DNA of 64,000 nt. Origin: an archaeon (GTDB lineage Archaea > Nanobdellota > Nanobdellia > Woesearchaeales > GCA-2686295). Positions within the stretch are counted from its first letter, which is position 1; each line of letters begins with the position of its first letter. Shown here piece after piece: positions 54,001 to 60,000 of this stretch. Location of the stretch: NCBI GenBank assembly GCA_043822105.1, contig JBDRCD010000015.1:16443-80442 (forward strand), in the 5' to 3' direction. Position numbers: made by a program.

Positions 54001-57000
54001 TTTGTACTTTCGTCTACACCTTCTTTCAGTGTTTCGTATTGGTACTTTCCATTTTTTTCTTTTATTTTCAGATATTCAAGATTTCCATATACTTTGTTGG
54101 TTGAGGAATATATTGCTATTGGTCTGTTTGGAGAAAGCCTTATGGCTTCTAGAACATTGAAAGCCCCTCTGGCATTTGTTTCAAAATCCAGAGAAGGATT
54201 GGTTACAGAGGTTGTGACTGCAACCTGTGCTGCCAGATGTATTACCACATCAACTTTGCTCACAAGTTCCAATAGTTTATCAGTATCTGTTCGAACGTCC
54301 CCTTTCTCAAACTCAACTCGAGGAAATTTTTTTTTAATCCATTCAAGATTATGTTCTGTTTTATCTCTGGATAGATTATCAAATAATATTACATTATCTC
54401 CTTTGCTCAAAAAATACTCTGCAGCATTTATTCCAATAAAACCTGCTCCGCCAGTAATTAAAAATTTCATAATACACCCTTTAAACCCATTGTTACGTGA
54501 AAAGAAAGTGTTTTATTAACTTTTCGTTTTATAATTTTGTTATTGACGTTTACAGAAATTTTGAAAAACCAAGAACTGTTTGAATATTAAAAGAGTAAAC
54601 TATTTAAACAAAATTCTTTTTTTCTTGACCTATGGTTAAGTTTAAGAATATCTGGAAGGAAAGATATAAGGATTACAAAGAACCATATGATTACTTGTTT
54701 GCAAGACTTTTTTCTTATCCTTTTACAGTGTTATTCTATTATGTTAGACTGACTCCAAACATGGTTTCATTGATTAGTTTTCTTGTTACTTTGTTGGCTT
54801 CTTATTTCATTGTAATTGATAAACTTATTCTTGGTGGAATATTGGTTTGGATAGGGTTAGTATTAGATTTTTCTGATGGTGAAGTGGCGCGTTTAAGAAA
54901 CATGCAAAGCGAATTTGGAGCCTGGTTTGATGCTTTTCTTGATAGAATTGGAGAACTTTTTTTATTTGGTGCAATAATAATAAATGTTTATTCTCACAAT
55001 CCTAAGATATATATTTTAGTACTTTGTTTAATGGCTTTTATTAGCACAACTCTGTGGCGATACTTCAATCTGGTAATCAAAACATCATTCAAAGAAAATA
55101 GAGAAAAAAATTATGATGAAAGAGCCAAACACAAGTTTGGTTATGATGTGGTAACTCACAATCTAATAATTTCTTTAGCGGCCTTTTTCAATCAACTTTT
55201 TTTTCTTGTTATATTTTTTGCAGTAGTGATGAATCTTGCGTGGATAAAGAATATAATTACGACTTTTTTCAAGCATTATAATTCTTGATTATATTAGACA
55301 ATACTTTCTCTGGTTCAAACTTCTTAAGATATATCTCTTTGCTTTTTTCTCCCATCTGTTTTCTAAGTTTTGAACTGGAGATAATTTTTGATAACTTTTC
55401 TGTGAGTTCTTTTTCATTCTTGAACAAAAATCCGTTTTCTCCGTCAATTATTCCTTCAGAGTTTCCTCCGTTGTTGGTTGCCACCATTGGCTTTCCAAAG
55501 AACAATGCTTCCACCATAACTCTTGATAGTGGTTCAGGCCAGAGTGCGGGATGAACTATGATGTCTGACTGTTCATAGATTGAGTAAAGATATTCATATG
55601 GAACTGTCTTGTAAAATCTGATGTTTTTCCCTGCCAACGTTTTCAGATATTCTTTTTCTGGTCCGTCGCCAAATATCAGAAGCTTTGCATTTCCTTTGAC
55701 ATTGTTGAAGGATTTTATTAGCATTTCTACACCTTTGAATTTTCCGAGTGCAGGTCCAATGTATGTAACTATAATCCCTTTTTCCATTATGTCAAATCGC
55801 TTGTCAGGATTTTTTATTTTAATTATATTTGGGATTGTAGCTATGTTGTTTTTTTTCACACCATTTTTTTGAAGAAGATCTCTGATGAAACCTGAGATGG
55901 CAAAATAGGTTTTAACATTTTTCAGGTTGTTATTGTTCTTCTTGTAGGTTCTGTAAATATAATACCAGAATACAGGATTATTCTTTAGATACCACTTCAT
56001 CTTTGATTTTCCAACAACCTTTGAATTGGTAATGCACTTCAGAAATTTCTTTGGGTTGCAGCCAGTACACACTTCTTCTTCTTTATAGAATAAATTTCTT
56101 TTTGGGCAGAAATTTGTGTATCCATTTATTGTTGCAAAGGTTTTTTTCTTAAGTCTGAAGTTTGGAATGGAGGTTGTGTTCAGAAAATGAATTGCGTCAA
56201 AGTTTTCCCTCTTGTCAAGTTTAATGATTTCTTTTTTTAAGGATTTTTGAAACACAAAATTTCTTTTAAGATTGCTTAATATGGATGATGGTTCACTTCC
56301 GGTTTTAAGCAGTCTCAAAATTCTGAAACCTTCTTTTTTTTCAAATTTTTTAAGTCCTTTGAACCAGGATGTCAGAACAAATACCTCATGATTTTTTCCA
56401 GCCAAAGCCTTTGCAAGACTGTGGGCACTAATCTCGCCTCCTCCAAAAACTTTTGGTGGAAAATATTCAGAAACCAACAGAATCTTTAACTTATTTTTCA
56501 TTCTTAATCTTTTTGATTATGTCTGTTGTTGAGAATCCCTTAACAAGAGGTATTAGAACAACTTTTCCTCCGAATTTCTCGACATACTTGGTTTCAGGCA
56601 TATCCTTTGTTTTGTAGTCGCCTCCTTTAATATGAATGTTTGGTCTGACTTTTTTTATCAGTTCAACAGGTGTATCTTCATTGAAGAGCACAACATAGTT
56701 TACGCATTCAAGTGCTGCCAGCATCTCGGCTCTTTCCATTTCTTTAATTATTGGTCTGCTCGGACCTTTCAGTCTTTTAATTGATGCATCAGTGTTTAGT
56801 CCAAGAATTAATATGTCTCCGTGTTCTTTTGCTTTTTCCAGCAACTTTACATGACCGACGTGCAGTATGTCAAAACAACCATTTGTGAATACAACTTTTT
56901 TACCCTGTTTTTTTAATTCTCTGCTGATAATTTCAATTTGATCTTTTTTCTTTATTTTTGAATCTTCTTTTTCGAACACTGAAAGAAGTTCCTTTAATGA

Positions 57001-60000
57001 AGTTGTTTCAGTACCAAACTTTCCCACTACAATGCCTGCTGAATGATTGGCTATTATTGCAGCTTCTTCCAGGCTGGCTCCTGATACGATTGAAAGTGCT
57101 AGTGCACTAATGACTGTGTCTCCTGCACCGCTAACATCATAGATTTCTTTTGCTTTGGTTGGAATATCAATCAATTGGTTTTGTTTTAGAAGAGACATTC
57201 CTTTTTCGCCTCTTGTTATTAGGACTTTGCATCCAAGAGTTTTCTCCAGTTTTTTCATAACCAATATTATTTCTGTTTTTTTATCTGCACCGCTAATTTC
57301 GTAGGCTTCTTTTTCATTGGGTGTTATTATGCTTACACCTTTATAGAATAATTTTTCAGAGTGTTTAGTGTCAGCAATGATTGGTCTGCCTTTTGCAAAA
57401 GAAACAATCTTGTTAACCAGTTCTTTTGTAATTAATCCTTTTGCATAGTCAGAAATGATTACTGCATCCACTTTTTTTATTTCCTTTTGAACCAATTTTA
57501 TGATTTTATCGCTTTTCAATTCTTCATAGTTTTCATAGTCAATTCTTAGAAGATGTTGTTTTCTGCCGACAACCCTTGTCTTGACAATGGTTGGTCTATT
57601 GGTTTCAATTAACTTGTATTTAATCTTTTTCTGATCGAGAATTTTTTTGAGAATCCTTGCTTCTTTATCTTTTCCTATGGAACTTATGAATGTGACCTGT
57701 GCATTTAGAGCTGCAAGGTTTGAAACAACATTTCCTGCACCACCAAGAACATACAACTCCTTTTTTGCCTGAACAATCTGTACAGGTGCTTCCGGGCTTA
57801 TCCTTGAGACATCGCCATGGATGTACTTGTCAAGCATAACATCTCCTATTACAAGAATTTTTTTATTGGGAAAATTTTTAATGATATTCTTCAGATGTTC
57901 TTTCATGTGAAATAAGAATTCAGGCATATATAAATAGTTAACTGAAATGGTCCTCTATGATGCCGCAGATTATGTGATATGCAAGATGCTGTACTTCCTG
58001 TATTCTTGATGTTCTATTGTGTTTGACAAACACTTCAACGTCTGTAAGTCCCTTCATTGGTCCTCCTGTGTTACCATTAAAACCAATTGTTTTCAAACCC
58101 TGTTTTTTTGCTTGTTTTATTGCTCTTATAAGATTCTCAGAATTACCAGAAGTGGTTATGCACATTAAAACGTCTCCTTCTTTCCCAAGCCCTTCAACTT
58201 GTTTTGAGAACACATTTAGAAAATTATCATCATTGCTCAATGCAGTGAGTATACTGCTGTCGGTTGTAAGTGCAATTGCAGGCAGAGCCTTCCTTTTTTT
58301 CTCGTATTTGCCAACCAGTTCAGCTGCAATGTGCTGGGAGTCTGCTGCGCTTCCACCATTTCCGCAAATTAGAATTTTTCCGCCCTGTTCAATTGAATTA
58401 ATAATCATATCTGCAGCCTGTTGAATACTGTCTTTTAAGTTGTAATTATCCTTTATTGCCTTAATCAGTTCATCGAATTGTGTTTCTATGGTCATTTTAG
58501 TTTATTTACTGCCTTTTCAACTTCTTCAACCGTAATTAGTTTCATGCATTTCTGAAAACTTTTGTTGAAGCAGTCAGGCATATCACCTTTTTCATTGATT
58601 ATGCAGGGGCTACACCATGTTTTGTGATAAAGGGAAATGTTGCCTTCACCATATGGTCCCCATCTTGCAGGAGTATTTGGTCCAAAAAGACCTATCGTCT
58701 TTACCCCCTGTGCAGCTGCTATGTGCATTGGTCCTGTATCATTGCTTATAAATATTTTGCATTTCTCTATAAAACTAAAAGTCTGCCTCAAAGAAAGTTT
58801 TCCGGCAGTTGTTGATGATCTGCTTCTCATCTTTCTTCTTATAACATTTATTTGTTCCAGTTCTCCTGGAGAACCCACAAAAACAATTTTAGCATCATAT
58901 TTTGTTATAAGATTATCTGCAAGTTCAATAAATCTTTTTTCAGGCCACATTCTCTGTCTTGATGACTCTGCAGCGCCAGGGCAAATTCCAATAACTAGAT
59001 CTGTTTTTTTTATTCCTTCCTTTTTCAGAAACGAATCAACTATTTTTTGATCTTTTTTAGAAACGTTGAGTTTTTCAAGTTTATTGACCTTTTTGACTCC
59101 GAAGGATTTACCCATTTCAATGTATGAGTCGACCATGTGTTTGTCTTTGAAGAAAGGAGTTTTCTCATGATATAGGTCTGATCTTACTTGGTTTGTGAAT
59201 CCTATTGTGTATTTTCCGATGAATCTTGTCAGCATTGCAGATGAGTTTAAATAGGGCTCCAGATCAAATGCAACATCAAATTCATTTGCCAATCCTAATA
59301 TTTCAGGACTCAACAGAACAATATTATCAATGAATTTCTGATCCTTGTACACATCCGCATTTCTCTTTGTTGCGATTACTGTTATCTTTGCTTTCGGATT
59401 CTTTTTTTTAATCTGTTTTATCAGTGGAAGTGTTATGACAGAATCACCAATTGCCCAGAGTTTAACAAAAACTATGTTTTTTGGACTCTTTGGTCTTTGT
59501 ACCATTTTGTTTGGCTTCGCTAATTTTCCTATAACTAGGCACAACAGTCCGTTGAGGTATTTGTCAACCCCCCTTATTGTATCTATGACTAAACTCATAA
59601 GAATTACTTCTTCTTTTTTGACTCTTTTATTGCAACGGTTCGTACAATCTTTGTTATATCCTGTTCATGACTTTCAATTTTCACATATATTCTGAACATC
59701 AGATAGAAAAGCAAAACTATGCTGACATAAACAACCAAATCAATTGGTCTTTCAATGCCGAACACATTTGCCAGTGAATTGACTACCTGAGGAATTGAAG
59801 CAAAAACAATTATCGAAATCCAAATTATGCTCCAGAATAAAAATTCCAGATTAGACATCTTTTTGTCTTTGAACCTTAGAATAACACGACTGTAGGCAAA
59901 TATTGCAAAGATGATTGCTATTACTTGTATTGGTTCCATAGAGTCTGTTAATTGAACTTGTTTTTTAAACTTTTTCAAAAACTATATAAACATAACTAGG

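Follow-up and report, generated by a model that had tools for sequence, protein, structure and literature searches.

In bacteria, ADP-heptose is used by the heptosyltransferases WaaC and WaaF in building the inner core of the lipopolysaccharide (LPS). Heptose is known also from archaea. The N-glycan of Thermoplasma acidophilum contains heptose, the particular isomer being otherwise found in the LPS of a few bacteria (PMC11407970, a review). Functional archaeal heptose biosynthetic enzymes have been described by Tang et al. (Science 2024), as far as that work is presented in PMC11461863 and PMC11573728, and ADP-heptose clusters have been published in the glycan regions of Methanococcus maripaludis KA1/JJ (PMC12667266). 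The reason for archaeal manno-heptose "remains elusive" according to the authors (PMC11573728). Here we describe a heptose operon hosted by a DPANN archaeon of the Nanoarchaeota/Woesearchaeota group. The operon lies in a stretch of 64,000 nucleotides, hereafter the window (contig JBDRCD010000015.1 of assembly GCA_043822105.1, positions 16,443 to 80,442), and on balance is best seen as the heptose branch of an N-glycosylation (agl-type) cluster.

The locus features the same enzyme families and domain architecture as the bacterial system, and the kinase and nucleotidyltransferase motifs of HldE, the catalytic acid and the D-T-G...H donor-site motif of the GT9 glycosyltransferase are all conserved. 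It differs from the bacterial system because the host is archaeal, and genes for LPS, 3-deoxy-D-manno-oct-2-ulosonic acid (Kdo) or lipid A are not in view. The window is also devoid of gmhB and hldD, and its GT9 protein fails the cutoffs of the HepI, HepII and HepIII models and has a clade-specific N-terminal extension. Neighbours are AglB and agl-type genes, not lpt or waa genes. In contrast, in a Margulisbacteria locus used as comparator (L007) gmhB and hldE are followed by LptC/LptD-like genes, an LPS context unlike that of the archaeal loci. The systems of Tang et al. and of Methanococcus are closer, since they similarly consist of a didomain kinase/nucleotidyltransferase and an isomerase, encoded in a glycan-biosynthesis region of an AglB-bearing genome. 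Unlike these, the window comes from a DPANN archaeon and not from a methanogen, its HldE lacks the STTR5 arginine, GT9 is co-transcribed and AglB is adjacent. The Asn-linked glycan of T. acidophilum, an archaeon of a different phylum, shows that heptose-bearing archaeal N-glycans exist.

Genes of the heptose operon

The original prediction, an earlier reading of this DNA, had placed a GT9 gene, gmhA and hldE in tandem on the minus strand. All three open reading frames (ORFs) were located precisely where predicted, and their identities are correct. They are part of the following unit, listed in operon order:

59604-59978, minus strand, DUF2304 small membrane protein, first gene of the module (PF10066, 95 bits)
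58492-59598, minus strand, GT9 glycosyltransferase, putative ADP-heptose-dependent heptosyltransferase of a DPANN-specific clade (368 aa; PF01075)
57938-58495, minus strand, GmhA, sedoheptulose-7-phosphate isomerase (185 aa; SIS_2)
56491-57927, minus strand, HldE, bifunctional heptose-7-phosphate kinase and heptose-1-phosphate adenylyltransferase (478 aa; PfkB and CTP_transf_like)
55269-56501, minus strand, GT4 glycosyltransferase, last gene of the operon (Glycos_transf_1, 113 bits, and Glyco_transf_4)

The genes are tightly packed in an operon-like fashion: 4 nt are shared by GT9 and gmhA and 11 nt by hldE and GT4, whereas a gap of 10 nt separates gmhA from hldE. The DUF2304 ORF as called starts with TTG and spans 124 aa. 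As homologs are 109-112 aa long, translation more likely begins at the ATG at 59939.

HldE and GmhA are assigned to the bacterial-type families of the same names. Both HldE domains were recognized in Pfam searches (PfkB, 135 bits; CTP_transf_like, 77 bits), and both exceed the cutoffs of the corresponding equivalogs, TIGR02198 for RfaE domain I (354.8 bits, cutoff 345) and TIGR02199 for RfaE domain II (210 bits, cutoff 181.5). On NF008454, a full-length proteobacterial model, the protein does not reach the cutoff (478.1 bits against 521). Because both domain-level equivalogs pass, this shortfall plausibly reflects divergence of HldE from the sequences used for the model. HldE shares 41% identity with its E. 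coli counterpart, and matches in the Protein Data Bank (PDB) include HldA (4E84, E = 2e-52) and HldC (5X9Q, E = 1e-34). A kinase domain devoid of key residues, or akin to ribokinases, would have spoken against the original prediction. The NxxE (NEKE at 204) and GAGD (at 267) motifs are intact, and the protein groups with HldA/HldE, not with ribokinases. The nucleotidyltransferase domain features an HxGH motif (HVGH at 356) and the sequence LVKGFSTT at 461-468. In the STTR5 motif (F/L)XXGRSTT the arginine confers CTP/UTP promiscuity (PMC11573728), a rule that is not absolute according to a commentary (PMC11461863). The window protein has F and not Arg at position 5, and does not belong to the STTR5 subclass; for lack of this arginine, its product is predicted to be ADP-heptose. 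As a whole, the genes present support the making of an activated beta-D-manno-heptose.

GmhA matches SIS_2 (107.6 bits) and scores 206.5 bits on TIGR00441, 3 bits below the cutoff of 209.45. The score is much lower on the model of the paralog DiaA (147.9 bits, cutoff 352). Phosphoheptose isomerases account for the top 12 PDB matches and for 13 of the 15 listed, the remaining two being DiaA. The best are C. jejuni GmhA (1TK9, E = 1e-48) and 2XBL (E = 1e-47). Residues 45-60 carry the GNGGSAADSQHIAAEL motif. In practice, the 57938-58495 product may be taken as GmhA.

The GT9 protein largely exceeds the gathering score of PF01075 (131 bits against 22). Its best PDB match is 3TOV (E = 5e-28), and WaaF (1PSW) and WaaC (2H1H) also match. 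Scores are below the cutoffs of the LPS equivalogs for HepI, HepII and HepIII (104.4 against 134.6 for TIGR02195, 89.1 against 170.2 for TIGR02201, 83.7 against 185.3 for TIGR02193). By these scores it is classified as a member of the CAZy/Pfam GT9 family, and not of the WaaC, WaaF or WaaQ equivalogs, though it would work like them. WaaC residues D13 (the catalytic acid), K192, and D261-T262-G263 and H266 (the donor site) align to D52, R216, D287-T288-G289 and H292. Among 117 members of the GT9 clade, the aligned positions are fixed or almost so: G51, R216, W218, G289 and H292 are invariant, and the catalytic acid at position 52 is either Asp (53 members) or Glu (64 members). The DPANN clade is further distinguished by a stretch of residues (median 47) ahead of the catalytic acid, an extension that WaaC and 3TOV do not have. 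The extension features the motif DKYxGxxxC followed by a moderately hydrophobic tract (residues 1-45 of the window protein). All the named proteins among the best 120 GT9 matches are from DPANN archaea. We infer that the donor is ADP-heptose, because the GT9 gene is co-transcribed with gmhA and hldE, and co-occurs with them in all the archaeal loci described below.

Proposed destination of the heptose

The window was compared to eight other archaeal loci (L001, L002, L004, L005, L006, L008, L009 and L010), genes being monitored within 10 kb of hldE. L004 (GCA_014384375.1), L005 (JGI 3300009373), L006 (GCA_018819065.1) and L008 (GCA_018221105.1) are Nanoarchaeota/Woesearchaeota metagenome-assembled genomes (MAGs). 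The module DUF2304-GT9-(HldD)-GmhA-(GmhB)-HldE, in which genes in parentheses may be missing, is kept in all eight, which derive from independent assemblies, and the operon position of gmhA is the same in 9/9 loci. Genes found close to hldE are:

GT9, 9 of 9 archaeal loci
NodU-type carbamoyltransferase, 6 of 9 (window, L004, L005, L006, L008, L009)
AglB/STT3, 5 of 9 (the window and its three nearest relatives among them)
bona fide HldD, 4 of 9
bona fide GmhB, 2 of 9

The neighbours of the operon in the window, and the flippase of the same region, are:

34860-36356, Wzx-like flippase
54632-55288, plus strand, CDP-alcohol phosphatidyltransferase, convergent conserved neighbour (PF01066, 54.7 bits)
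60013-61122, plus strand, GDSL/SGNH hydrolase, divergent from the operon (Lipase_GDSL_2, 45.5 bits)
61456-61782, plus strand, small conserved ORF preceding the carbamoyltransferase gene (matched by the 81-aa L004 ORF in tblastn)
61843-63612, plus strand, NodU/CmcH-type carbamoyltransferase, conserved neighbour of the module (Carbam_trans_N, 252 bits; Carbam_trans_C, 239 bits)
63672-64000, plus strand, N-terminus of the AglB/STT3 oligosaccharyltransferase, running past the window end (tblastn with the 955-aa STT3 of L004)

The AglB gene starts with an ATG at 63672, about 4 kb from the heptose operon, and the encoded segment is 62% identical to the first 109 residues of the L004 STT3 (E = 1e-38). 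Its position matches those in L004, L005 and L006. The window is collinear with L004 and L005 for the CDP-alcohol phosphatidyltransferase, GT4, HldE, GmhA, GT9, DUF2304, the small ORF, the carbamoyltransferase and AglB. Proteins are 57-62% identical, except for the small ORF (42% over 61582-61779; no Pfam family). The operon GT4 is 62% identical to the L004 GT4 found at the equivalent position, the carbamoyltransferase 61% identical to its L004 ortholog, the phosphatidyltransferase 57% identical to the L005 gene at the equivalent position. The operon is located in a glycan island of 30 kb, which hosts a putative nonulosonic-acid pathway besides glycosyltransferases (GT2 and GT4) and the Wzx-like flippase. 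The AglB N-terminus thus is found in the window together with GT2, GT4 and GT9 enzymes, a flippase and many sugar-nucleotide enzymes, as expected for an agl cluster.

From these data the following route can be proposed. GmhA would convert sedoheptulose-7-phosphate to D-glycero-D-manno-heptose-7-phosphate, which the kinase domain of HldE would turn into the beta-1,7-bisphosphate. A phosphatase encoded beyond the window, GmhB or a substitute, would take off the 7-phosphate and, as HldD is missing, the donor would probably keep the D,D configuration. The co-transcribed GT9 would move heptose to a lipid-linked oligosaccharide at the cytoplasmic face. The neighbouring GT4, with other transferases, would lengthen the oligosaccharide, which would possibly be decorated by the carbamoyltransferase and the SGNH hydrolase, then flipped and joined to surface proteins by the adjacent AglB. 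We infer an acceptor bound for AglB because the window, like its closest relatives, has AglB next to the module, because the operon is embedded in the glycan island, and because a heptose-bearing archaeal N-glycan is known from Thermoplasma (PMC11407970).

Several points weigh against this reading. The acceptor of GT9 is not readable from its sequence, and the CAZy family GT9 includes also non-heptose transferases. An initiating transferase of the PF00953 type was not found in the window. AglB is on the opposite strand, in a transcription unit separate from the heptose operon, and STT3 is not found within 10 kb of hldE in 4/9 loci, in one of which (L009) PMT_2 GT-C enzymes occur instead. To our knowledge, no DPANN glycan structure is known. 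GmhB or other haloacid dehalogenase (HAD) phosphatases were not found in the 64-kb window, so that a complete pathway in the source genome is presumptive. Finally, the conserved CDP-alcohol phosphatidyltransferase and GT4 neighbours would fit also a glycolipid product.

The last point is at the heart of the main alternative, according to which heptose enters a glycolipid or lipoglycan of the membrane, or some other surface polymer made independently of AglB, rather than an N-glycan. The CDP-alcohol phosphatidyltransferase encoded next to the operon would provide the polar-lipid anchor, which GT4 and GT9 would then extend, in a manner loosely reminiscent of the LPS inner core or of mycobacterial phosphatidylinositol mannosides. 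In line with this, hldE has the phosphatidyltransferase and GT4 genes as conserved neighbours in both the window and L005, and all the characterised GT9 heptosyltransferases that we know of use lipid-anchored acceptors; the loci lacking STT3 also fit. The phosphatidyltransferase gene is however convergent to the operon and outside of it, and its best NCBIfam match, archaetidylinositol-phosphate synthase, is well below cutoff (68 bits against 180). AglB adjacency in 5/9 loci similarly argues against an AglB-independent product, which we regard as unlikely, though a serious competitor. The heptose-containing surface glycan originally predicted is plausible, and a surface-glycan role is judged likely.

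The heptose genes are not new as such. The names assigned to the HldE and GT9 proteins by the NCBI Prokaryotic Genome Annotation Pipeline (PGAP) are already in NCBI, and archaeal heptose enzymes and ADP-heptose glycan clusters have been published. The conserved linkage of GT9, HldE and AglB may be undescribed, as a search of the literature available for the analysis, aimed at GT9 or heptosyltransferases in DPANN or other archaea, returned nothing relevant. If heptose is used as proposed for N-glycosylation, archaeal ADP-heptose would have a concrete and testable purpose, the formation of heptosylated N-glycans by a dedicated GT9 encoded beside AglB, and the question why archaea make manno-heptose would be answered. 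The toolkit of the LPS inner core would have been recruited anciently into archaeal protein glycosylation, and later diversified within DPANN. This bears on how symbiont surfaces are presented to hosts. The practical value is modest, because the genes are already correctly auto-annotated, and similar clusters have been noted in methanogens.

Steps not encoded in the window

The original prediction had noted the absence of gmhB and hldD, and this holds throughout the 64 kb by motif scan, tblastn and scoring of short-chain dehydrogenases/reductases (SDRs). A scan of the window for HAD motifs yielded nothing relevant, and tblastn with bacterial GmhB gave zero matches. Only generic SDRs (27-29% identity) were detected in the window by tblastn with archaeal HldD. 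The SDR encoded at 53451-54470 was examined as a candidate for a divergent HldD and dismissed, as it reaches only 66 bits on TIGR02197 (cutoff 274.6) and its best match is dTDP-glucose dehydratase-like. The SDR at 33869-34831 is similarly not HldD (82 bits on the same model), and the third SDR-fold gene, at 36824-37903, is a GDP-mannose dehydratase (GDP_Man_Dehyd, 503 bits). The cytidylyltransferase at 49899-50456 was rejected as a second heptose nucleotidyltransferase, being more similar to glycerol-3-phosphate cytidylyltransferases (73 bits on TIGR02199, cutoff 181.5). PpaX-like HAD-IA hydrolases are encoded 2-4 kb from hldE in L001 and L002; as they do not resemble GmhB, and the window encodes no counterpart, they have been discarded as candidate phosphatases.

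Both enzymes are encoded in relatives. HldD proteins pass TIGR02197 in L004 (296 bits), L006 (432) and L008 (409), and GmhB proteins encoded in the operon pass TIGR00213 (cutoff 149.6) in L009 (168.7) and L010 (157.1). As judged from these scores, the full heptose pathway exists in the lineage. Encoding the phosphatase in trans is the usual state, because 7/9 archaeal loci keep the module with no gmhB within 10 kb. The position of hldD varies: it is found between GT9 and gmhA in L004 and L005, where the window features the 4-nt overlap instead, between GmhA and HldE in L008, and downstream of HldE in L006. L001 and L002 resemble the window in having no hldD. All the named proteins among the best 120 HldD matches are from DPANN archaea, and an L004-type HldD from the source contig is not among these 120. 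As the window also lacks hldD, the donor probably stays ADP-D-glycero-D-manno-heptose, unless an epimerase is encoded elsewhere.

The same observations could mean that the pathway is incomplete or repurposed, and leads only to heptose phosphates such as heptose-1,7-bisphosphate, or that the genes are decaying remnants. The missing gmhB and hldD fit this view, as do the lack of an L004-type HldD from the contig among the best matches and the finding that the closest relatives, L004 and L005, have hldD exactly where GT9 and gmhA overlap in the window. Yet every ORF is intact and catalytic residues are conserved, the module is retained in most loci without gmhB, and the hldD-less form recurs. Moreover, E. 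coli gmhB mutants are leaky, and GT9 enzymes can use the D,D donor. An incomplete or decaying pathway is accordingly improbable.

Origin and diversity of the module

The archaeal nature of the contig, assumed in the original prediction, is established by genes of the window encoding a PAN-like AAA proteasomal ATPase, Trm5/TYW2, FEN1, EndA, Hjc, an archaeal-type phosphoenolpyruvate carboxylase (PEPcase_2) and NFACT. Archaeal genes are found on both flanks of the module, AglB at 63672 on one side and EndA, Hjc, PAN and FEN1 upstream. GC content, GC at third codon positions (GC3) and codon usage of GT9, gmhA and hldE are within 2 standard deviations (SD) of the values of the 59 genes of the window. 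The heptose pathway is classically bacterial, and the nearest non-archaeal HldE proteins (Margulisbacteria/WOR-1) are about 46-48% identical; still, it is hardly conceivable that bacterial DNA was brought in by chimerism, misbinning or very recent insertion, and this view is effectively refuted by the archaeal flanks, the same gene order at about 60% identity in independent NCBI and JGI assemblies, the ordinary composition and the archaeal origin of all the named top GT9 matches.

Among GTDB representatives, Woesearchaeota MAGs come closest, their HldE proteins being 48% identical; nearer relatives, at 59-62% identity, are Nanoarchaeota MAGs and the JGI contig. A neighbor-joining (NJ) tree of 118 HldE sequences was rooted with E. 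coli HldE, labels being available for 13 archaeal and 6 bacterial leaves. The 13 labelled archaeal proteins fall in one clade of 81 leaves, and the 6 bacterial ones in a sister clade of 28 leaves, corresponding to Margulisbacteria/WOR-1. Internal branches of the tree are very short, and it has a single outgroup and no bootstrap. Because the archaeal proteins form one clade, any interdomain transfer would be ancient and lineage-wide. A single ancient transfer, after which the gene diversified vertically within DPANN, would fit the tree, which neither proves it nor fixes its direction. Horizontal acquisition, as suggested earlier, stands therefore only in this ancient form: a recent acquisition specific to the source genome is excluded by the collinear DPANN-wide module and the ordinary composition. 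The rarity which had been implied is not borne out either, the module being common and collinear in many DPANN assemblies.

Loci vary around the conserved module. DUF2304 directly precedes GT9 in L001, L002, L004 and L005, and the whole module in L006, while in L008 it is placed three genes ahead of GT9. In the L006 block the operon GT9 is replaced by a GT4. The order is rearranged in L008 (GT2 - DUF2304 - DUF362 - UbiA - GT9 - GmhA - HldD - HldE). Relative to L004 and L005, which have no GDSL gene at the equivalent position, that of the window is an insertion; L008 has one near the module. In Pseudomonas aeruginosa the core heptose is 7-O-carbamoylated, and the linkage to the carbamoyltransferase hints at an O-carbamoylated sugar. 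The window has one GT9 only, whereas relatives often have several. Further paralogs, which share about 30% identity with the GT9 of the operon, are found in L005 (17528-21419), L006 (15201-21446), L008 (11416-18128) and L010 (1909-4101 and 14137-15597). They lie near methyltransferase and radical-SAM genes (B12-binding in L005, L006 and L010, SPASM in L008), which suggests oligo-heptose or methylated-heptose structures. It is tempting to speculate that the DPANN-specific, DKYxG-extended GT9 clade provides the first heptosyltransferases known to act in AglB-dependent N-glycosylation, with configuration, number and decoration of heptoses differing by lineage. On this tentative view, gain and loss of hldD and of accessory genes would account for D,D or L,D configuration, for one to three GT9 paralogs and for carbamoyl or methyl groups, and these episymbionts would gain a hypervariable surface epitope resembling the LPS core.

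Rv3632 of Mycobacterium tuberculosis is presumably itself a DUF2304 protein. In L001, L002 and L008 the DUF2304 gene is placed after a PpgS-like GT2, an arrangement resembling the M. tuberculosis pair PpgS/Rv3632 (PMC9671496). In L002, a Woesearchaeota MAG, a 751-aa protein, in which a pyruvate-kinase-like N-terminal half is fused to a sulfate adenylyltransferase, is encoded between gmhA and hldE (7723-9978, plus strand), and may be linked to glycan sulfation.

Additional genes of the glycan island are of interest. A contiguous block on the minus strand (36366-43520) resembles a nonulosonic-acid or modified GDP-sugar pathway. It encodes a NUDIX protein similar to GDP-mannose mannosyl hydrolase, GDP-mannose 4,6-dehydratase, a DegT aminotransferase, a PglD-like acetyltransferase, NeuB, an SDR, a class-III aminotransferase and a CMP-sugar synthetase. 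CDP-alcohol phosphatidyltransferase-like genes are found at 47098-47871 (minus strand) and, next to the operon, at 54632-55288 (plus strand), and the glycerol-3-phosphate cytidylyltransferase-like gene at 49899-50456 is on the plus strand. This set suggests a phospho-alcohol substituent, for example glycerol-phosphate, or a pathway for polar-lipid head groups.

Outside the island, no tRNA gene was found in the whole 64 kb, and a 5S rRNA gene (32320-32436, minus strand; Rfam, 78 bits) stands alone, with no 16S or 23S gene nearby. NrdR is mainly known from bacteria; in the window, an NrdR-like repressor made of a Zn-ribbon and an ATP-cone (17557-18006, plus strand) is encoded directly upstream of a ribonucleotide reductase (18016-20616, plus strand).

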